NCBI GenBank assembly: GCA_017499595.2
Contig: CM039002.1
Coordinates: 1 to 64,000 of the forward strand
Length of the DNA stretch: 64,000 nt
Source of the DNA: Psilocybe cubensis
Lineage: Eukaryota
Direction: 5' to 3'
Below are positions 2,975 through 12,000 of the stretch, piece after piece; position 1 is the stretch's first letter, and the number at the start of each line of letters is the position of its first letter. A program made the translations under genes and the position numbers. The notes below the pieces were generated by a model. That model did no database searches. It had not been told where the DNA came from and was given only the letters and a program-made list of their open reading frames with translations.

Positions 2975-3570
2975 ACCCTAAACCCTAAACCCTAAACCCT
3001 AAACCCTAAACCCTAACCTAACCCCAACCCTAAGCTAACTAAGTCTAACCTTAGTAGGAAGTAAGGTAGGCGTGTGAACTTCCGAACGGCATGTGATTGT
3101 GAAGGGCCGGATCTAATTTAGTACATGGGAAAAGTTACTTAGTACTTCGGGAAAAGTTCCTTAGTACCGTGGAAACATTTTTGATGGACCGGATCATGAA
3201 CTGTCCAATTAAGATTCACAACAATCAATCATTCTATTATTTGATTGTTAGGTAAGGACCCAGGTAAGCTATTTATACTCTAGACATGTGAATATTCCCA
3301 TGTCGCGGTTACTCGGAGCCACGTAACCAGAGTAATCTATATCCATGTGATTCACATCACAGTCAATAACCCACGATGTCAAAGAACAAAAGTGTTGGAT
3401 CCACTTTTGACAGGTTACCATGTGCCACATCGACCCGTGACACTCTGTTCATCAGAGACCTGTCTAACTTGACAATAAACATTGACAGATTTGTGATAGT
3501 CGGTAAGATACATGACAGCTGCGCAGCATCACTTCACGCGCTGTCATCGGATGTCTAGAACATTCCTTCT

Positions 3571-4577
3571 AAAGAATAGCCACTGAAGAGTCTATAAAGA
3601 CGAAAGGGCTGGTTGTTGGGATCCCCCAACAGCCCTCAAGTACTCGTCCTCTCCCAAACTCCTGCCGCTTGTGCCTTCCCAACTCATCCGGGAGCCCTTT
3701 CGTCACTGATCTTGCCCTTGACTCGGGGACGTTTCATCGACATGTTGGCTGCCTCACGGCAAGCGGGGCCCTTTTTCTTTCACTCGCTCACGCCTTCTAT
3801 GTTGGGTTACGGAGGTCATACAAACTCGTTTTAGTCTAGCTGCGGGGATATCCAGCTATGATGACTTTGTAATTCGAGGGCGCGCAGTTCTTCAATGGGT
3901 ATGGACATCAGGTGAGAGTACACTGGGGGTTGTCAGGACCAGCTCTGCTGGATACGCTCCTGGCAAGTCGGTTGCAGCCGACGACACTACCGAATTGCTG
4001 GGACGTCCTAAAGCTTGTGGGTACCGCCGACCGCTGGAAACAGCCTAGGCACCGGTGGCGACCGGGTATGGTAACAATCCCCAAGATTCAGCGAAAGCTG
4101 GAATGGATAATCAGCAGCGAATCCGTAACGGTCACGCCGACGGAAGCGTTCAACGACTAGGTGGTAGTGGGGTCTTCGGATCTTAAGATATAGTCTTGGG
4201 AGTGGGGAAACCCACATCTGGTATCTAAACCGCGCCTCGCTGCTTACGAGGACGGCCCGAAGTCCAGAACCGCTTAAAACGCGGGTGACCCGGCCTCCCC
4301 TTAGTAAAGGGAGTTAACACAAGGATGGACAAATAGTTCGTCGCCGGAAATGAACCTGTGGCTGTAATGGCTGATGTGGCGCCCCTTGGTAAAGGGCTTA
4401 AAGGGTATTAGCCTGCCATGTCCAATGGCATGAGAGTGTCCCTTGGTAAAGGACTTAATAGGCAATAGCCTGCTCTTTTGTCATGAGCGGTATGTAGTGA
4501 TCGTTTGCCTGTACGGTAGCGCCCATTGCTTGCACTGGTCCACGCCCGTAAAAAATCACGAGCCGCTGGCCTTCTTT
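3571..4577 (+). ncRNA. Split hammerhead ribozyme, copy 5 (3571-3636 joined to 4566-4577)
   Basis: 5' part ends ...aacagcccT at 3636; 3' part Ctggccttcttt resumes at 4566; the join equals 8918-8995. Confidence 0.9.
3637..4565 (+). ncRNA. Group I self-splicing intron, subgroup IC1-like, 929 nt, no homing endonuclease
   Basis: P aattgctggga (3993-4003); Q aatcagcagc (4109-4118); R gttcaacgactag (4148-4160); S aagatatagtc (4185-4195); P3 cactacc/ggtagtg (3985-3991/4163-4169); P7 GACTA/TAGTC; P5abc with an A-rich bulge; P8 gggtc-ttcg-gatct; P9 gtggg-gaaa-cccac; P1 with U3636.G3926; terminal G4565. Confidence 0.92.
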
Positions 4578-4679
4578 CTATTTCAAACTCACAGTTTAAA
4601 CTAGTCGCTCGCACCTCGCTTCGCTCGGTGCTCGCTCCCCCCCTAAACCCAACGACTTTGCTATCACCCATCAGTTACC

Positions 4680-5838
4680 ATGTCATCCCAATACTCTGCT
4701 GCATTCTCTCGTGCCATGTCCCCTACCCTGGACGCACTCACCCAGGCCGTCGTCAACAACACTGTCTTCGGCGTCAACGATGAAGCAGGCCGCCACAACG
4801 CTCTTATCGACGAGCTGGCCACTGTAGTCATCAAAAAAATAGCTGAGTGCCGCTCCGTTGACCAAGTCATAGACTGCGTCTTTTTTGACTATCGTGCTGC
4901 CCTCAGGGAGTTTCTCCTCAACCTCGCATCGTGGTGCGACAAGAGGGAAACAGTCAAGGCTAGCCTCGAGCGCCTTGAATCTGCCGTTAGCGCAGGCAAC
5001 ACGCCCAATCGCCTTAAGGTGAAGGCACCCGAGTTCCAACTTACGAAGGAATTCGCGGATGCCGGGTCAGCGGAGGCTCTTCGAGTCTCCACTACGTTCT
5101 CTTCCGCTCGTGATGCCTTCCAAAAGGCAATTAACGACGGCGCCGTTCAGGCGAAAAAGGACGAGCTGGCTTTTTGGGATGATAAATGCGCGCTCAACTC
5201 TTGCTACGAAGCTGCTGCCCTCATCGTTAAGGCAACTTACGATGATCGCAAATCCAGCTACAAGCTCCCTGTTTTCTCTACAGACAACAAGGGAGTTCGA
5301 CGTATAGCAGAGTGGGTAGTGTCTCCGCAAAAGAAAGCCGAATGCAGTGCGCTGCAAACTATACTGCCGGCGATCTTTTCTCATATCAAACAGATTGTCA
5401 ACATGCGCCACCGCGCCTTGGCAATTAAGATTGAGAAAAAGCGGACGACTGCGGCAACAGCCGATGTCGAGATGGCCGATGCGACCAAACCAGGTCCATC
5501 GATTCAATCCCTTATTGATAAGGGCTTGAATGCACGTCTCAAAAAGCTCAACCTTGGATCTGTGGGCAAGAAGGCAAGTTTTCGTAACCCTTCACCCATA
5601 ATTCTGGACACTAATTATTACTCTAATTACCCAGACTTTGTCTGGCCAGAATTCGTCCAAGGCTCCTCAACCTCAGGCCAGGAAAGCTGGCCCTTCGAAA
5701 CCCAAGTCGTCGTCGACGCCTTCGCAGAGGAAGCCTCAAACCAAGGCTTCCAACAAGGTCGACAACAAGAAGAAAGGGAAGGGGAGAGCTCCCGTCAAGA
5801 ACAACGATCCAAAGGGAAAGGGAAAGGCAAGAGCCTAG
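4680..5838 (+). CDS. Predicted spliced ORF1 (join 4680-5573, 5635-5838; 365 aa) with a Lys-rich basic C-terminus
   Basis: AAG|GCAAGT donor at 5574, ctaat branch-like sites, CCCAG acceptor at 5634; splicing links codon 298 in frame to the basic ORF 5638-5838. Confidence 0.7.
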
Positions 5839-8213
5839 ACGCGCGGTCTACTGTAGCATCATTTACGTCGGTGAGACCCGCCTTCCCCAACTCTATTCCT
5901 GACGATATACTCACCATGACTAAAACAGACGCAGTTTCTTTTGTACACCTCAATACCCCGATTTCATTCTTATTGGCTGGCCAGTATAGATCTAGTGTAC
6001 ACTGTAGTCCTGGTGTTTCGGTCCCTGTTGATGTAGCAAATGATTTATCTCTTGGACTCAATTATATGTTTTTTACACTGCCTTCTAAAAGTCTGATCAT
6101 GCAAGCATGGAATGATTTTCAACGAAGAATAAGATGGCGTATCTATTTTTTGTTTAAAGAAGGCATGAATAAACCTTTCGATCCAGACTATGGAGTAAGC
6201 TCTAAAAAGAAAGAGAAACCTCCAATGTTACCGCAATTTATGGAACTTGGCCTTTCAATGGGACGTCGGTACGTTATTAAAACGATCGCAAGTATCCCGG
6301 AAGAAGCCCTTAAAGAGATGCGAAAGCACGCGTTCTCTCCTAAAAGGGACAAGATCCAAAAGTTTCTTTTCGATAACAACTATGTTATTACGATGACAGA
6401 TAAGAATCTTGGCCTCGCGGTGTCTGAACGCGACTGGATATTAAGGAATGAGCTCAATCTTCTTGAAGATGAACGCAACTACGAAGAGTTAGAATTCGAA
6501 GTTGCGCAAGAAGTTATGAAGAGCAAAATGATTCAGATGCAAACTCTCGCACGTACCGTCGAAGATGAACATCTGTTTCTATTTGAACTTGGGTTGTCTC
6601 GATTCTTTCTATCGAATGTACCGGAAGACGGATCATCGTTCAAGTATCCTCAATTTCATGGTATACCTAAAATCCACAAGAAACCTACTGGATTTAGGCC
6701 CATAATTCCGTGTCACTCTGTAGTATTTAATCCTGCAGCCAAGTTTGTATCAAAAGAGCTTAAGCCGATTATTAAATCGACTCCTTCAATCATTCACGGA
6801 ACGAAGGATCTCTTTACGAGATTAAGCCAATTGCGTATAGACCCCAAACGACAATGGTATTTTGTCACCGGGGATGTAGTTGCTTTCTATCCCAATATTC
6901 CGTTGGACTTGTGCATCGAAATCGTTTGTAATATGTACGAGGAATGGTTACTCAACGCTTCGGAAGAAAACACTGCATTAGCCCATATTAATCCAAATTC
7001 GTTAGAGAATAACTTGGTTAAATTGGGCATCTTTAAACGTGCTATCGAGATTGGCAATACGCAATTGATAACACAACATGGGTCTAGATATTTTAGACAA
7101 AAAAATGGCCTCGCAATGGGCGTCGCGGATTCTCCGGACCTTGCTAACCTCTTTGGAGCCCATTTTGAAATAAAGTCAAAAATCTTAGACCACCCAAACG
7201 TGGCCTTCTATGGAAGGTACATCGACGATTGTTTCGCAATTGTTTACGCCGAGTCCGAAGCACTTGCACTTAATCTTATTAAAGAAACAATAAAGTTCGA
7301 TGGTTGTGTTATCGAATGGGCTGTTTCCTCGTCGGGATGTCAATTTCTCGATGCTTTCATATTCAAGGAGTCTGGAAAACTTCATTGGAAGCCATTTGTC
7401 AAGACAGGAAACAACCGAGAACGAGTTCCATGGGTATCACATCATCCTTTGGACGTCAAACGTGGCGTCTACATTGGAGAGTTATCCAGGTTAGCCGTGC
7501 TATGTAGTACCAAGGAAATCTACATCGGAGCAATTAGAGACCTTAACGCTCTCTATTTGATGCGCGGTTATCCCGAAAACCTAGTCATGTCTTGGTGTAA
7601 GAAGAATATACAAGAACGTTGGGAAAAGCGATTCGCTTTACGAGTCGCAGAGCACGACGAATCCATTCTTGTACTTAAAACCAGATTTGATCAGGTATGG
7701 AATTGGTTTTCAGCTGCTGAACTTGGAAAGACTGTTACCGAGTACTGGTCGGCATGGTATGAACATGCCGAGAAAGGTCTGTATAGTGCAGACTCGTCCA
7801 GACCCCTTATCAAACCAGATCCAAATTACGTTCACGACCTCGATGATGTTCGCCCGGAGCTGTTCACACAGATCCTCGTGGACGGAGAAACTGAGTTCGT
7901 ACCGGATTTGAGGAAGATAGGACTACTCGGAAGTCGTTGGATAGTATCGCGAAAGCGCAATACTAATCTTTTCGACCTTGCAAATGTGTGGAAGAAAACA
8001 GTCTTTCGTAAACTGGATGAAAACATCGCTGAAAAAGGTGGTGTTGTTCCCGAAACTCAAAACGTTAATGAAACTTATCATTCTGCTCTAGTTGAAGCTG
8101 CTGAACAGATAAGTATCGAAAGTGATAACGAGATAATACTTCATAGACGTTCAATCTCACAAGAGAGGGAACATCCAGAATTCGGCAGAATATCCAAATC
8201 TTACAACCGATGA
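4680..8213 (+). CDS. ORF1-reverse transcriptase fusion of a Penelope-like element (1177 aa, unspliced form)
   Basis: Motifs TDKNLG, FHGIPKIHK, FRPII, GDVVAFYPNI, QKNGLAMGVADSPDLANLF, YGRYIDDCF, QFLD, SHHP; no C-terminal GIY-YIG; helical N-terminal part. Confidence 0.93.
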   Translation: MSSQYSAAFSRAMSPTLDALTQAVVNNTVFGVNDEAGRHNALIDELATVVIKKIAECRSVDQVIDCVFFDYRAALREFLLNLASWCDKRETVKASLERLESAVSAGNTPNRLKVKAPEFQLTKEFADAGSAEALRVSTTFSSARDAFQKAINDGAVQAKKDELAFWDDKCALNSCYEAAALIVKATYDDRKSSYKLPVFSTDNKGVRRIAEWVVSPQKKAECSALQTILPAIFSHIKQIVNMRHRALAIKIEKKRTTAATADVEMADATKPGPSIQSLIDKGLNARLKKLNLGSVGKKASFRNPSPIILDTNYYSNYPDFVWPEFVQGSSTSGQESWPFETQVVVDAFAEEASNQGFQQGRQQEEREGESSRQEQRSKGKGKGKSLDARSTVASFTSVRPAFPNSIPDDILTMTKTDAVSFVHLNTPISFLLAGQYRSSVHCSPGVSVPVDVANDLSLGLNYMFFTLPSKSLIMQAWNDFQRRIRWRIYFLFKEGMNKPFDPDYGVSSKKKEKPPMLPQFMELGLSMGRRYVIKTIASIPEEALKEMRKHAFSPKRDKIQKFLFDNNYVITMTDKNLGLAVSERDWILRNELNLLEDERNYEELEFEVAQEVMKSKMIQMQTLARTVEDEHLFLFELGLSRFFLSNVPEDGSSFKYPQFHGIPKIHKKPTGFRPIIPCHSVVFNPAAKFVSKELKPIIKSTPSIIHGTKDLFTRLSQLRIDPKRQWYFVTGDVVAFYPNIPLDLCIEIVCNMYEEWLLNASEENTALAHINPNSLENNLVKLGIFKRAIEIGNTQLITQHGSRYFRQKNGLAMGVADSPDLANLFGAHFEIKSKILDHPNVAFYGRYIDDCFAIVYAESEALALNLIKETIKFDGCVIEWAVSSSGCQFLDAFIFKESGKLHWKPFVKTGNNRERVPWVSHHPLDVKRGVYIGELSRLAVLCSTKEIYIGAIRDLNALYLMRGYPENLVMSWCKKNIQERWEKRFALRVAEHDESILVLKTRFDQVWNWFSAAELGKTVTEYWSAWYEHAEKGLYSADSSRPLIKPDPNYVHDLDDVRPELFTQILVDGETEFVPDLRKIGLLGSRWIVSRKRNTNLFDLANVWKKTVFRKLDENIAEKGGVVPETQNVNETYHSALVEAAEQISIESDNEIILHRRSISQEREHPEFGRISKSYNR

Positions 8214-8326
8214 AAAGAATACTAGCGCGTAAGGCGTAAAGCATTAGAAAAAAACCCTAACCGTAAGTATTCCTTGCTATAAAGAAACAAACATCTACTT
8301 ACAAGCAACACTTTGGATTAAATAGC

Positions 8327-8400
8327 TAAACCTAAACCCTAAACCCTAAACCCTAAACCCTAACCTAACCCCAACCCTAAGCTAACTAAGTCTAACCTTA
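8327..8400 (+). repeat. Telomeric and degenerate telomeric repeats inside the element's 3' UTR
   Basis: ccctaaa x3-4 followed by ccctaacctaaccccaaccctaagctaactaagtctaacc; units C, D and the 5' pLTR begin at this tract. Confidence 0.85.
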
Positions 8401-8917
8401 GTAGGAAGTAAGGTAGGCGTGTGAACTTCCGAACGGCATGTGATTGTGAAGGGCCGGATCTAATTTAGTACATGGGAAAAGTTACTTAGTACTTCGGGAA
8501 AAGTTCCTTAGTACCGTGGAAACATTTTTGATGGACCGGATCATGAACTGTCCAATTAAGATTCACAACAATCAATCATTCTATTATTTGATTGTTAGGT
8601 AAGGACCCAGGTAAGCTATTTATACTCTAGACATGTGAATATTCCCATGTCGCGGTTACTCGGAGCCACGTAACCAGAGTAATCTATATCCATGTGATTC
8701 ACATCACAGTCAATAACCCACGATGTCAAAGAACAAAAGTGTTGGATCCACTTTTGACAGGTTACCATGTGCCACATCGACCCGTGACACTCTGTTCATC
8801 AGAGACCTGTCTAACTTGACAATAAACATTGACAGATTTGTGATAGTCGGTAAGATACATGACAGCTGCGCAGCATCACTTCACGCGCTGTCATCGGATG
8901 TCTAGAACATTCCTTCT

Positions 8918-8995
8918 AAAGAATAGCCACTGAAGAGTCTATAAAGACGAAAGGGCTGGTTGTTGGGATCCCCCAACAGCCCTCTGGCCTTCTTT
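8918..8995 (+). ncRNA. Type I hammerhead ribozyme, copy 6, in the 3' pLTR (cleavage after C8984)
   Basis: gcca CTGAAGA gtct ataa agac GAAA gggctg...cagccc TC tggc. Confidence 0.92.
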
Positions 8996-9073
8996 CTATT
9001 TCAAACTCACAGTTTAAACTAGTCGCTCGCACCTCGCTTCGCTCGGTGCTCGCTCCCCCCCTAAAACCCTAAG

Positions 9074-12000
9074 CCCCACGCGGTAGGCGCCTTTCCTGAT
9101 TGCATTTGTTGTTTGTGTTTCGTGTTCAAAATCTTCTTTTGTTGTCGTTTAACAGCCCTGTATGGTAAAGTAGTCAAAAGACAAACAAAGAAGAGCGCAA
9201 CAAAGAAGCGGGGTGCGTATTACTGACATACTGTGCACCGGGCAGCGGATGATGCATACATGAAGGGTAGGCGGCAGAAGAAGAGGGGGAGGACGATGTT
9301 CTGAAGAATTTTGAGTCGAGCAGGAGCTTGGGAGGATTGTATGAACGGGGAGTTTAGCATTGAAAACTATAACAAGGCAAAAGCAGCATGGGTAGTAAGC
9401 GATAGAGTCGAGATATGATGTGGTGAGCATAAAAAGCATGGACATTGGAGTACAGGCATACCACAAAACCTGACGGAGGGTGATGAGAAGAGCTTCACAT
9501 CAACCTCTGGAAGCGGCACGGTTGCCTCCACACGTCTGACAACTCTATCGCTCTTCCTGACCCCGCGCGGGACCAGGTAACAAACCGTAAATCACCTTTA
9601 TGAACGGAAGGCGTGGGTTGTAAACCACAGAATAAGAGGAGGGGGATGTGCTGGGGATCGAGGAGTCCAGCGGGAGATTGTTCGAACATCAAAATGAGAC
9701 TTGACGAATGAAATGAGGCAGAACGCTTAGGGAATCTGGGAAGGAGTCAGGAAAAGAAGCGGAATCGTGCATGTCAAGGAGAAGATGGGAGACATACCAC
9801 AGATATGGATAGAAAACAGCCCAACCTAGACCTCTGTTGTGGAACACCCCATTCTCACGCTCAAATCTGTCGGGAAAGTGATGGGATGTACCCGGTATTG
9901 CGCAATTGAGCCTTTTGACGAGAACAAGGAGGGAGGAACTCACGGTGGTCCTATCTAAAAAGGGAAGGGGTTGGAGAGGATGCGAGTGTTCGAGACGTCG
10001 TAGAAGATGGGTGAAAATCGAATACGTGTAGGTCGCATGCTTGAGGATGGGATCGATCGCTTATTTGAGTGAAAGGGAGGTGGTATTATAAGTATGCTAC
10101 GACGTACCATGAGGGTTCAAACGCATCAGCAACCACCCTCAATGCATACATGTTCTAGAGGTACAATGTGCCCAGGAGGGTGACAGGATCCGGCGGTTGG
10201 TTTATGTTTGTGTGCTATGCGGATGGGGAGTTGGTGTGGTGTGTGTGAAAGAACCTTTAAATGTAAGATCATAGCTGTCTGAATTAGGTGAAGGAGGCCC
10301 TGGAAGGTGGGTTAAATCTCGCGTCGCCCAAAGCCAACGCCATCGTGTTTGTCGCACAGTGTGAGCCGAAGACGTTCAATCTCCGCTCGAAACTCGATCA
10401 CGTCAGCGCTATTTTCTCCCACGCCGCTGTATAAACCTTCAGCTTCAGCTACAACCACCAAGTTTGCAAGCGCGATCATGTATCACTTTCATCTGTTCAA
10501 TATGCATAATTCACTTGGACTAATCATTGTGGCTCTTGTCCATTTGATAATTCGGTGCGAAGTTCTTGTCTTTTATGTCCCAACTTGATCGATTCTCTCC
10601 TCAAACTCCCACCTATCGAATCTATCTTAACACTCGTCCACTAAATACCAGGCAATGTTGTGGGTTTTATAGATACTTTCGCTAAATTGCGTGCACATAT
10701 TGACTGTGAGATTCCAGAAACACTGCGTAGTTCCAACACAAATAATGAAACATGGCGCTAGGTGCGTCATTTAACATCTACATATGAGTTCATCTAATTA
10801 CCCTGTCCGTCTAAAATCATTCACTCATCACTCTTCAGTGAAGCCAAGGATGTAGAACATCGGCTGAACGAGTTGTTAGAATAGGCCCACAAGTCCGTAT
10901 CTCGAGAGGTGTTTTCATAGGTTGAGGAGTTACAGTCAACTTTAGCACATAGTTATAGCTACATCTGTGATCTAACCGTGGTTTTTCTAACCCGGTTCCC
11001 CCTCTTCATCGTTAATTCATTTGAATTTACATATAGTATGGATGTTGGCGGTCGTTTCTCACAAAATGAGTATCTCTTAATTCATTACAAGGATTTTTGG
11101 TTTTGAGTGCGGGACAGCGTATCATCGTATCTGCACTTGATATCTACAACGGTGACGGAGTGTACGGTTTCAGGTGATAGATTCGGCGGGGCGGTGGGAA
11201 AGAATTACTGTGCATATTGTGTGTGGTTAATCAGTTATAATCTACCCGGTGTAGTACTACACGTCGCGGAGACAGTGTGCCGAATACTTGATACCTGCGC
11301 AACGTATCCAGGAAGGAGAAAATGATGTTTGACTAATAAGGCGTAACCACAAAACACAGTAAATTTCTCTACCTTGAGGTCGTTGTATGGTGTTCTGGTT
11401 CTGTCACATCCAACGTAATGGGAAAGAGAGCTTCAAAGCGTAGTGATGGAATATCAAAAGATACCGCTAGCACGGGTTCCCACAGCCAAAAGCCAGCGCA
11501 GGGTAATGACTGTGTTCAATGTTTTTTTTTCTCATGTTATAAAGATCGAGCCATCCACTGTTCATCTCAAAGATTCCCACTACATTCCGCTCCCAAATGT
11601 TGCATCTACACTTGTATTTCTCTTCAAATTGATGTCCTCGATGTCGCTCATGTTACATGCTACACAGAGAGAGAACAGAAAAACTCAACGGGGGAGTGCA
11701 GTAACCTCGCCCATACAACCTTGCCGTGTCCTCCATCCGGAGAGATAGGTAAGCAAAACATTACATTCAAGCATAGAGAACATCACCAGCAAGAAAGCCC
11801 CGGGTTCACGCCCGTTGAGCAGATATCCGAATGGATAACTGACTCGTCAGGAGATGCTTGAAGGTATATTTTGAGTTCCTGTCTCTCGAAGTGTTTGGAA
11901 CTTATGTAAATGGTTGCAGGTCGGGCCTCAAAACGAGCAAGGAAATGAAAGTATCGTGCGGGGGCGACATGTTGAACCCCATCGGATGCCCTGCCCATTT

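Follow-up and report, generated by a model that had tools for sequence, protein, structure and literature searches.

A Predicted Group I Intron Inside a Hammerhead Ribozyme of a Telomere-Attached Penelope-like Retroelement, and the Unoccupied Copy of Its Target Site

Introduction

According to a review of 2013 (PMC3679873), the known nuclear group I introns all interrupt rRNA genes, and intron circles and reverse splicing are known among their side pathways; in the same account, the complete pathway of reverse splicing plus reverse transcription still lacks experimental evidence. In the Penelope element of Drosophila virilis, it is a spliceosomal intron that abuts helix I of a hammerhead ribozyme (PMC4209133). 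In the extracts of PMC8557442 and PMC4209133, group I introns come up solely as the origin of GIY-YIG endonucleases, and a search of titles and abstract openings found no published description of such an intron in Penelope-like elements. Another relevant system is the engineered method of self-targeting and splicing (2023, PMC10457212; 2026, PMC13542726), in which a ribozyme with its guide, a 3' exon, and a downstream target ending in U follow one another in the order that is also found at the locus described here.

This locus is unusual in that a group I intron, predicted to be self-splicing, lies in a nuclear retroelement outside the rDNA, in that the intron splits a hammerhead, such that the two ribozymes would act in sequence, and in that a similar pairing of intron and hammerhead is found again in a distant relative. 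Since the RNA that hosts the intron also codes for a reverse transcriptase, the element constitutes a natural test setting for two open ideas, namely the spread of group I introns through reverse splicing and then reverse transcription, and the use of circular RNA as the copying template of Penelope-like elements.

The Element at the Chromosome End

The window, which is the whole stretch of 64,000 nucleotides of Psilocybe cubensis DNA that was analysed, opens with (CCCTAAA)n, so its start is a chromosome end. The element and its surroundings comprise the following:

1-170, no strand assigned: terminal telomere repeats (CCCTAAA)n, repeat family D1
164-2984, + strand: four intron-less, 5'-truncated copies of the element's 3' end, from repeat comparison
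164-988, 1003-1450, 1471-2210, and 2245-2984, + strand: the same copies individually, with telomere repeats between them
2985-3636, + strand: 5' terminal repeat (pLTR), consisting of telomere-like repeats and leader and ending in the 5' part of a hammerhead
4680-8213, + strand: reverse transcriptase ORF of 1177 aa, in which an endonuclease domain was not found
8332-8983, + strand: 3' terminal repeat, ending at the empty intron site, from repeat comparison
8984-9079, + strand: 80-nt post-hammerhead segment and degenerate telomere-like tail, the link between element and subtelomere

On the basis of its ORF content, position, tail, and hammerhead, the element is classed as an endonuclease-less, telomere-attached Penelope-like retroelement of the Coprina type; like the members of that type, it lies at a chromosome end and has a tail of reverse-complement telomere repeats with an adjoining hammerhead. 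The ORF is intact. Its weak match to RVT_1 in Pfam (27.7 bits, E 2.7e-6) falls below the cutoff of 29.6, and no other family, GIY-YIG endonuclease included, was found by Pfam on the 1177 aa; a Pfam search of the whole protein and of P0002 found no family, and a PDB sequence search with the reverse transcriptase gave 0 hits. YIDD and related motifs are nevertheless kept across 27 aligned relatives.

The Group I Intron and Its Guide Sequence

The intron and its exons were delimited as follows:

3629-3636, + strand: upstream P1 target ACAGCCCU, doubling as U16.1 and the 3' strand of hammerhead helix III
3637-4565, + strand: group I intron of 929 nt ending in G4565, from comparison of two repeat copies
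3637-3925, + strand: long insertion inside P1, the ends of which (about 3637-3649 and 3912-3925) pair
3921-4217, + strand: catalytic core, Rfam RF00028, 70.9 bits, E 5.6e-16
3926-3933, + strand: internal guide sequence GGGGUUGU, from a search for exon complements
4566-4647, + strand: 3' exon, with C17, the 3' strand of helix I (UGGC, 4567-4570), and the 80-nt segment ending CCCCCCCTAAA

With the intron-less copy for comparison, the 5' exon ends at U3636 and the intron at G4565. The match to RF00028 spans model positions 1-253 of 253 and exceeds the gathering score of 50, and the intron has the U3636.G3926 pair at its 5' splice site and the terminal G that characterise group I. The best intron complement to the end of the 5' exon is GGGGTTGT at 3926-3933, which makes 8 pairs including the terminal U.G, as against only 6 pairs for the runner-up. 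In the minimum-free-energy fold of 3625-3940, P1 is followed by about 10 further pairs between the start of the intron and 3912-3925, and the helix extends past the splice site through these intron-internal pairs at the ends of the insertion. P10 is weak (1-2 pairs, by inspection), and two runs have a fixed variant at 3981 that preserves pairing as U.G. No ORF of at least 40 aa was found on the + strand of the intron, so a homing endonuclease is not evident.

The Second Target and the Hammerheads

The initial annotation had drawn attention to a second copy of the P1 target, and ACAGCCCT is indeed present on the + strand at both 3629-3636 and 8976-8983. It has 9 matches in the window against 1.33 expected, a number reached in 0 of 100 shuffles; six of these (893, 1354, 2114, 2888, 3629, and 8976) occupy one position in the six copies of repeat family D6, with every truncated copy having its own (893, 1354, 2114, and 2888). 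The terminal repeats are 100% identical over 653 nt (2985-3637 and 8332-8984). The target is duplicated because it is part of the terminal repeat, and neither the match of the two copies nor the excess of ACAGCCCT is therefore independent evidence. The identity of the repeats is itself not accounted for by simple copying of an unspliced transcript, which counts against the explanation that is preferred below.

8976-8983, + strand: downstream copy of the P1 target and unoccupied intron insertion site, from copy comparison
3579-3636, + strand: 5' part of the 5' hammerhead, at an offset of 5347 to the 3' copy
8926-8988, + strand: intact type I hammerhead, predicted cut after C8984

Comparison of the copies identifies the second target as the empty insertion site in the element's other (3') terminal repeat. 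This site is buried in helix III of a hammerhead whose parts, from an alignment, are helix I (GCCA/UGGC), CUGAAGAG, a helix II of 4 pairs, GAAA, a long helix III, and UC before the cut; it thus has the CUGANGA and GAAA boxes, the three helices, and the UH cut site of type I. In Rfam, the best match, RAGATH-1-hammerhead, is below threshold (28.1 bits against 56.3, E 0.005 in 201 nt), as is Hammerhead_3 (19.3 against 48.5). The motif also occurs in 19 of 30 related contigs. In the 5' hammerhead, the intron is inserted between U16.1 and C17, and, since it splits the hammerhead, one ribozyme must act before the other.

It had also been proposed that U8983 might be joined to C4566 in a circular RNA with an intact hammerhead across the junction. 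The size given for this circle holds (8983-4566+1 = 4418 nt) and equals exactly the repeat spacing from 4573 to 8991 (family D5). The junction would rebuild the hammerhead because the 80 nt after it are identical in the two copies (4566-4647 and 8984-9065).

Copies With and Without the Intron

In the DNA reads of one run from another strain (X22), the summed depth is 87-115 for the intron, 339-362 for the 5' end of the ORF, 645-736 for the 3' end of the ORF, and 1161-1499 for the leader. The depth of the intron is thus around 0.29 of that of the ORF 5' end, a ratio from a single run aligned at 90% likeness and taken without a single-copy control. Around 629 X22 reads join the leader to the 3' exon without the intron. 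Of the 12 related contigs that have a hammerhead-to-ORF junction, 9 lack the intron there and show a spacing of 144-192 nt, compared with 168 nt in the window after removal of the intron; two contigs (L009 and L019) contain both repeats, each intron-less. By both the X22 reads and the related contigs, intron-less full-length copies outnumber intron-bearing ones.

Terminal overlaps are found in 12 of the 30 related contigs, with periods of 4318-4572 nt. They were rejected as evidence for circles because collapsed repeats in an assembly look alike; moreover, L009 and L019 end in telomere repeats and so reflect DNA copies. In nine X22 DNA reads (7 start points), the last base of the intron is joined to its first, a junction that tandem integration or the copying of an intron circle would produce.

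Related Introns in a Distant Lineage

The layout of an intron beside a hammerhead recurs in a distant relative. In one contig (L026), as in the window, the intron lies before the ORF and an empty site after it, although only the last 326 nt of this intron are present. An interpretation of L026 as an entire 5' repeat interrupted by 481 nt of inserted sequence was rejected, the 326-nt intron end being preceded by sequence like the 3' flank. The recurrence of the layout in a distant lineage could mean that the geometry is used. Another contig (L027) contains an intron with a full-model match to RF00028 (57.0 bits). The two lineages of related introns occupy different positions, 1 nt before the hammerhead cut in the window, within the catalytic core, and 6 nt after it in L027, beyond helix I. 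In each lineage, the guide matches its own exon; both introns have a peripheral motif of 34-39 nt in common (92-94% identity), and two Rfam alignments reveal paired changes between them in P3 and P9.

Does the Intron Circularise the RNA?

The reading that we prefer, with a probability of roughly 0.6, is that the identical targets are the occupied 5' and the empty 3' repeat sites of one element, which undergoes cis-splicing and hammerhead release of a unit, back-splicing being a side reaction at most. The intron would first cis-splice at the upstream site via the long P1 that is continuous with its intron-internal extension; splicing would then rebuild the 5' hammerhead; and the two hammerheads could release a unit RNA of 4418 nt (4567-8984). 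Back-splicing to the downstream site would be chemically allowed but required by neither the element nor the intron, and a circle made by the intron, although possible chemically, looks less probable than normal splicing. From the sequence we infer each part of this scheme, from splicing and cleavage by the hammerheads to the lack of back-splicing. A guide target is present downstream of the 3' exon (8976-8983), as a self-circularising RNA would need, but so is a competing upstream 5' exon that forms a longer P1. By energy estimates that disregard tertiary structure, proteins, and co-transcriptional folding, the upstream P1 duplex reaches -19.6 kcal/mol, compared with -11.0 for the 8 exon pairs alone that are available downstream; opening the target costs 10.5-10.8 kcal/mol in the 3' copy and 9.4-9.9 in the 5' copy. 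An unconstrained duplex search found a stronger pairing at the 3' site (-27.6 kcal/mol), which was set aside because its register differs from P1.

At its junction, the circle would read exactly like the genomic 3' repeat and the cis-spliced RNA; short reads cannot separate the three, since the identity extends over 653 nt to one side of the junction and 80 nt to the opposite side. Two presumed RNA runs yielded 3 and 1 short contig pieces, none of them across a splice or back-splice junction, and these have no bearing on expression.

Another possibility, somewhat unlikely in our estimation, is that the RNA is circularised via its hammerheads: after cis-splicing, cuts after C4566 and C8984 would be followed by the joining of the 5'-OH and the 2',3'-cyclic phosphate by tRNA ligase. 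The intact 3' and rebuilt 5' hammerheads would be exactly 4418 nt apart, and for retrozyme monomers RtcB ligase proved a much more effective means of circularisation than self-ligation (PMC7229834). A circular template has been proposed for Penelope-like elements, and the hammerheads of fungal elements are described as stable as monomers (PMC4209133). The identical repeats and the truncated copies starting at telomere-like repeats fit more-than-unit copying. The terminal overlaps also speak for this route, but such overlaps result from collapsed repeats too, and L009 and L019 reflect DNA copies. However, a circle with one junction cannot yield a copy with the intron in a single repeat, and the hammerhead scores below the gathering threshold. 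Divergent RT-PCR cannot separate the two routes to a circle, since the product of hammerheads and ligase has the same sequence as that of back-splicing.

The empty sites could alternatively be the targets by which the intron spreads, the excised intron reverse-splicing into intron-less element RNA and the element's reverse transcriptase fixing it in DNA. The lack of a + strand intron ORF of at least 40 aa, the related introns at different positions in two lineages with their own guide matches and shared motif, and the head-to-tail reads are all consistent with this, and reverse splicing is documented, with the complete path via reverse transcription still unshown (PMC3679873). This explanation is nonetheless unlikely: it leaves unexplained the confinement of the intron to the 5' copy in both the window and L026, the 9 reads from one run are thin, and the intron might also be moved by DNA recombination.

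The initial annotation had suggested that the guide could pair with the downstream target and that U8983 could be joined to C4566. In this model, guanosine would cleave after U8983, which would next attack the 3' splice site; the product would be a circular RNA of 4418 nt that includes the complete ORF and a rebuilt hammerhead, and the reaction would be the natural equivalent of self-targeting and splicing as engineered. Intron, 3' exon, and downstream target are in the order of the engineered construct, in which P1 alone suffices in vitro (PMC10457212). Target and 3' exon are identical at the two sites, the circle would equal one repeat unit, the 3' end left by the hammerhead cut would keep the target, circular templates have been proposed for such retroelements (PMC4209133), and the layout is also found in a distant lineage. 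Against this as a main or required route, the upstream site is transcribed earlier and makes a much longer, continuous helix, whereas the downstream target is held in helix III, the opening of which costs about as much as the 8 pairs would gain. The efficiency of the engineered system drops as the insert lengthens (PMC13542726), and the exon here is 4.4 kb. Moreover, the circle would be without the intron and so could not reproduce an intron-bearing copy; the intron is missing from most full-length copies and most relatives, and a transcript start within 3647-3915 is not known. That such a reaction matters to the element seems very doubtful. A stronger form of the idea is a little less probable again, namely that in intron-bearing copies the group I ribozyme back-splices to the empty 3' site and produces a coding circle of 4418 nt with a rebuilt hammerhead, which serves as a rolling template for the more-than-unit copies present at chromosome ends; if true, this would be a natural version of the RNA-circularisation method invented in 2023.

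Finally, there is only a slim chance that the intron is a dead relic reacting at neither site, as the remnant in L026 and the weak P10 might suggest, given the full-model matches in two lineages (70.9 and 57.0 bits), the paired changes in P3 and P9, the guide-exon match in both lineages, the intact host ORF, and the U.G pair retained by the 3981 variant.

Comparison With Known Systems

Like Athena and Coprina (PMC8557442), the element is endonuclease-less, lies at a chromosome end, and has reverse-complement telomere repeats beside a hammerhead; a group I intron is not mentioned for them in the literature searched. The intron itself resembles the group I introns of nuclear rDNA (PMC3679873) in its core, its P5 extension, its terminal G, and the U.G at its 5' splice site, but it resides in a telomeric retroelement and its P1 loop is around 290 nt long.

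In D. virilis Penelope (PMC4209133), too, an intron of the repeat lies at the edge of a hammerhead, the hammerheads differ between spliced and unspliced RNAs, and intron-bearing and intron-less copies coexist. The intron here is, however, a predicted group I ribozyme, situated inside the catalytic core in the window or after helix I in L027.

The likeness to the engineered end-to-end geometry noted in the initial annotation stands for the order of the elements but not for the upstream region: in the RNA of the window, the native 5' exon is still in place ahead of the ribozyme, and the P1 that it forms is longer and uninterrupted. As in the engineered system, two transesterifications would join the exon ends without foreign sequence (PMC10457212, PMC13542726). 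In contrast to that system, the target in the window has a high GC content and lies hidden within a helix of the hammerhead, the exon measures 4.4 kb, and the circular product is here only predicted.

As in the retrozyme circular RNAs and the circular template proposed for Penelope-like elements (PMC4209133, PMC7229834, PMC5680766), each repeat has a hammerhead, the two being separated by one unit; they are predicted to yield a unit-length RNA whose ends can be ligated, and more-than-unit DNA copies are present. Unlike in retrozymes, one of the hammerheads in the window is split by an intron and would be functional only after splicing, and the unit is an autonomous element of 4.4 kb, whereas a retrozyme is small and non-coding.

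The Element at the Chromosome End

The element is a Penelope-like retroelement attached to the telomere, as laid out below.

Features of the chromosome end (forward strand)
1-170: telomere repeat (CCCTAAA)n, chromosome end
164-988, 1003-1450, 1471-2210, 2245-2984: four 5'-truncated copies of the element's 3' end, with telomere repeats between them
2985 to about 9075: full-length element copy
4680-8213: intact ORF, 1177 aa

The outermost truncated copy (164-988) begins within the 3' UTR. The repeat unit, both in 1-170 and in the repeat tails, is the 7-mer CCCTAAA; most fungi use a 6-mer. The telomere tails of the related contigs (30 in all) have the 7-mer in L004, L009, and L010 and the 6-mer in L019. 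Twelve of these 30 contigs (within L001-L021) measure about one unit and overlap at their termini, the periods being 4318-4572 nt; collapsed terminal repeats would account for this, as would circular or tandem templates.

A search with 501 residues of the ORF matched proteins publicly named Psilocybe cubensis at 98-99% identity over that region. Its match to RVT_1 is weak (27.7 bits, E 2.7e-6), and a Pfam search of the ORF found no other domain. With the endonuclease-less, telomere-attached Penelope-like elements (PMC8557442, partial text), the element shares four features: it lacks an endonuclease, sits at a chromosome end, has reverse-complement telomere repeats as its tail, and adjoins a hammerhead. 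The name "Coprina type" denotes a likeness by these features.

A Group I Intron That Interrupts a Hammerhead

Comparison of the two terminal repeats reveals a 929-nt insertion, 3637-4565, in the 5' copy, outside which they are identical (653 nt before, 80 nt after); the last exon base is U3636 and the last inserted base G4565. The sole Rfam group I intron match in the 64 kb lies at 3921-4217 (RF00028, 70.9 bits, whole model covered). No stretch of the intron complements the exon end better than the guide sequence GGGGUUGU, at 3926-3933, which forms 8 pairs with U.G at the splice site, compared with 6 pairs at the runner-up site. As the initial annotation had proposed, the 289 nt that separate the splice site from the guide sequence make up a long P1 loop. 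P1 is present in the minimum-free-energy fold of 3625-3940, where the first bases of the intron prolong it by pairing with 3912-3925 (about 10 pairs). At 3981, all 86 reads of sequencing run X22 and a contig of run X11 have G in place of A; by inspection, this turns U-A into U.G in a small hairpin (about 3967-3982), so that the pairing is kept.

The intron-less 3' repeat aligns with a type I hammerhead at 8926-8988, consisting of helix I GCCA/UGGC, CUGAAGAG, a helix II of 4 pairs, GAAA, and an extended helix III; cleavage is predicted to follow C8984. The alignment scores only 28.1 bits, under the family threshold of 56.3; the motif occurs at the matching place in 19 of the 30 related contigs. 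Set against this intact copy, the 5' insertion places the intron between hammerhead U16.1 and C17, and the 3' strand of helix III doubles as the P1 target.

The intron is optional for the element. In raw DNA reads of X22 (one run under the same species label, matched at 90% likeness and without a single-copy control), summed depth is 87-115 in the intron, 339-362 at the ORF 5' end, 645-736 at the ORF 3' end, and 1161-1499 in the leader, and about 629 reads run from the leader into the 3' exon without the intron. Nine of 12 related contigs with a hammerhead-to-ORF junction lack it, their spacing of 144-192 nt bracketing that of the window minus the intron (168 nt), and in L009 and L019 both repeats are present, each without an intron. 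Within 4639-8325, X22 depth is about twice as high at the ORF 3' end as at the 5' end, with a fourfold rise into the leader; a 5'-truncation gradient of this kind is expected of copies primed from the 3' end.

Nine X22 DNA reads with 7 start points join 4565, the last intron base, to 3637, the first. Such reads point to introns joined head to tail in DNA. A junction of this kind would follow from tandem integration by reverse splicing or from a full-length intron circle copied by reverse transcription; nuclear group I introns are known to take both pathways (PMC3679873, partial text).

A Related Intron in a Distant Lineage

A contig family from a metagenome scan, whose reverse transcriptase is 28-32% identical to that of the window, carries a related intron directly before the ORF.

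Features of the distant contigs
L027, 395-1590: hammerhead-intron stretch
L027, 452-1590: intron, 1139 nt, 57.0 bits, with boundaries fixed by comparison with the 3' copy of L026, which lacks the intron
L024, 1-849: contig start inside the intron
L026, 1054-1443 and 5222-5391: last 326 nt of the intron before the ORF; empty site after the ORF

The L027 intron lies 6 nt past the predicted hammerhead cut and has a guide sequence, AGUUUGA (873-879), that fits the 3' strand of helix I. An intron beside a hammerhead cut site thus recurs, with the guide altered to fit the exon. The window and L027 introns have a peripheral motif of 34-39 nt in common (92-94% identity), and in both alignments read together, P3 and P9 show paired changes. 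Hairpin-like and about 34 nt long, the motif stands twice in the periphery of each intron (window 4383-4416 and 4440-4473; L027 735-768 and 1526-1559). In both lineages with both ends visible, only the 5' copy holds the intron, though two cases are too few for a rule.

The Second P1 Target and RNA Circularisation

A sequence search of the window confirmed the 8-mer P1 target at both 3629-3636 and 8976-8983. From this pair, the initial annotation had derived a model in which the guide sequence attacks the downstream target and joins U8983 to C4566; its circle of 4418 nt is correctly computed (8983-4566+1) and equals the repeat spacing. The 8-mer has 9 matches in the window against 1.33 expected, and since 6 of the 9 are one position in six copies of a single repeat family, the coincidence of two targets is the repeat itself. 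Judged from sequence, the second P1 target is a consequence of the terminal repeat, and the downstream copy is best described as an unoccupied intron insertion site.

The same circle would arise by another route: after cis-splicing, two hammerhead cuts would release 4567-8984, which a ligase would close. This route is the published proposal for these elements (PMC4209133, partial text) and is supported for retrozymes (PMC7229834, partial text). Its circle is identical in sequence, so divergent RT-PCR cannot separate the two routes; nor can short reads decide on the circle junction, whose flanks of 653 nt and 80 nt are the same in cis-spliced RNA and in the genomic 3' repeat.

The intron might circularise the RNA, but on present evidence this is unlikely to be the main route; we put it at roughly one chance in ten. 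Its chemistry is sound and, as had been claimed, agrees with an engineered method in which a target behind the gene of interest is cut and then joined to the 3' exon start, P1 alone being sufficient in vitro (PMC10457212, partial text). The recurrence of the layout in a distant lineage speaks for the model, or at the least means that the layout is not a one-off. However, the upstream exon runs covalently on into the P1 extension (local duplex of -19.6 kcal/mol), whereas all that the downstream site can offer is 8 exon pairs, worth -11.0 kcal/mol, and one further C-G pair, so pairing favours the upstream site. Helix III, a hairpin of -18.0 kcal/mol, keeps both targets closed, and opening costs 10.5-10.8 kcal/mol in the 3' context versus 9.4-9.9 in the 5' context; sequestration of the upstream site, which the model had invoked, thus points the other way, the downstream site being the more sequestered if either is. 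Moreover, the exon to be circularised is 4.4 kb, and engineered efficiency drops with longer inserts (PMC13542726, partial text). The optional nature of the intron also counts against the model, a circle without the intron is a dead end for the intron, and a single-junction circle cannot yield a copy in which just one of the repeats has the intron. The window copy must derive from a linear, unspliced, and uncut transcript or from two templates.

Comparison with Known Systems

According to a 2013 review, rRNA genes host all known nuclear group I introns (PMC3679873, partial text), and in our literature search, which covered sources in part, no paper described such an intron in a Penelope-like element of this sort. 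The arrangement of intron and hammerhead, a new form of known kinds of parts, is worth bench work. The closest natural analogue of its structure is the spliceosomal intron of Drosophila virilis Penelope, which has its end at hammerhead helix I (PMC4209133, partial text), and the closest functional analogue of intron-driven circularisation is the engineered method, which, unlike the window, has no competing 5' exon.
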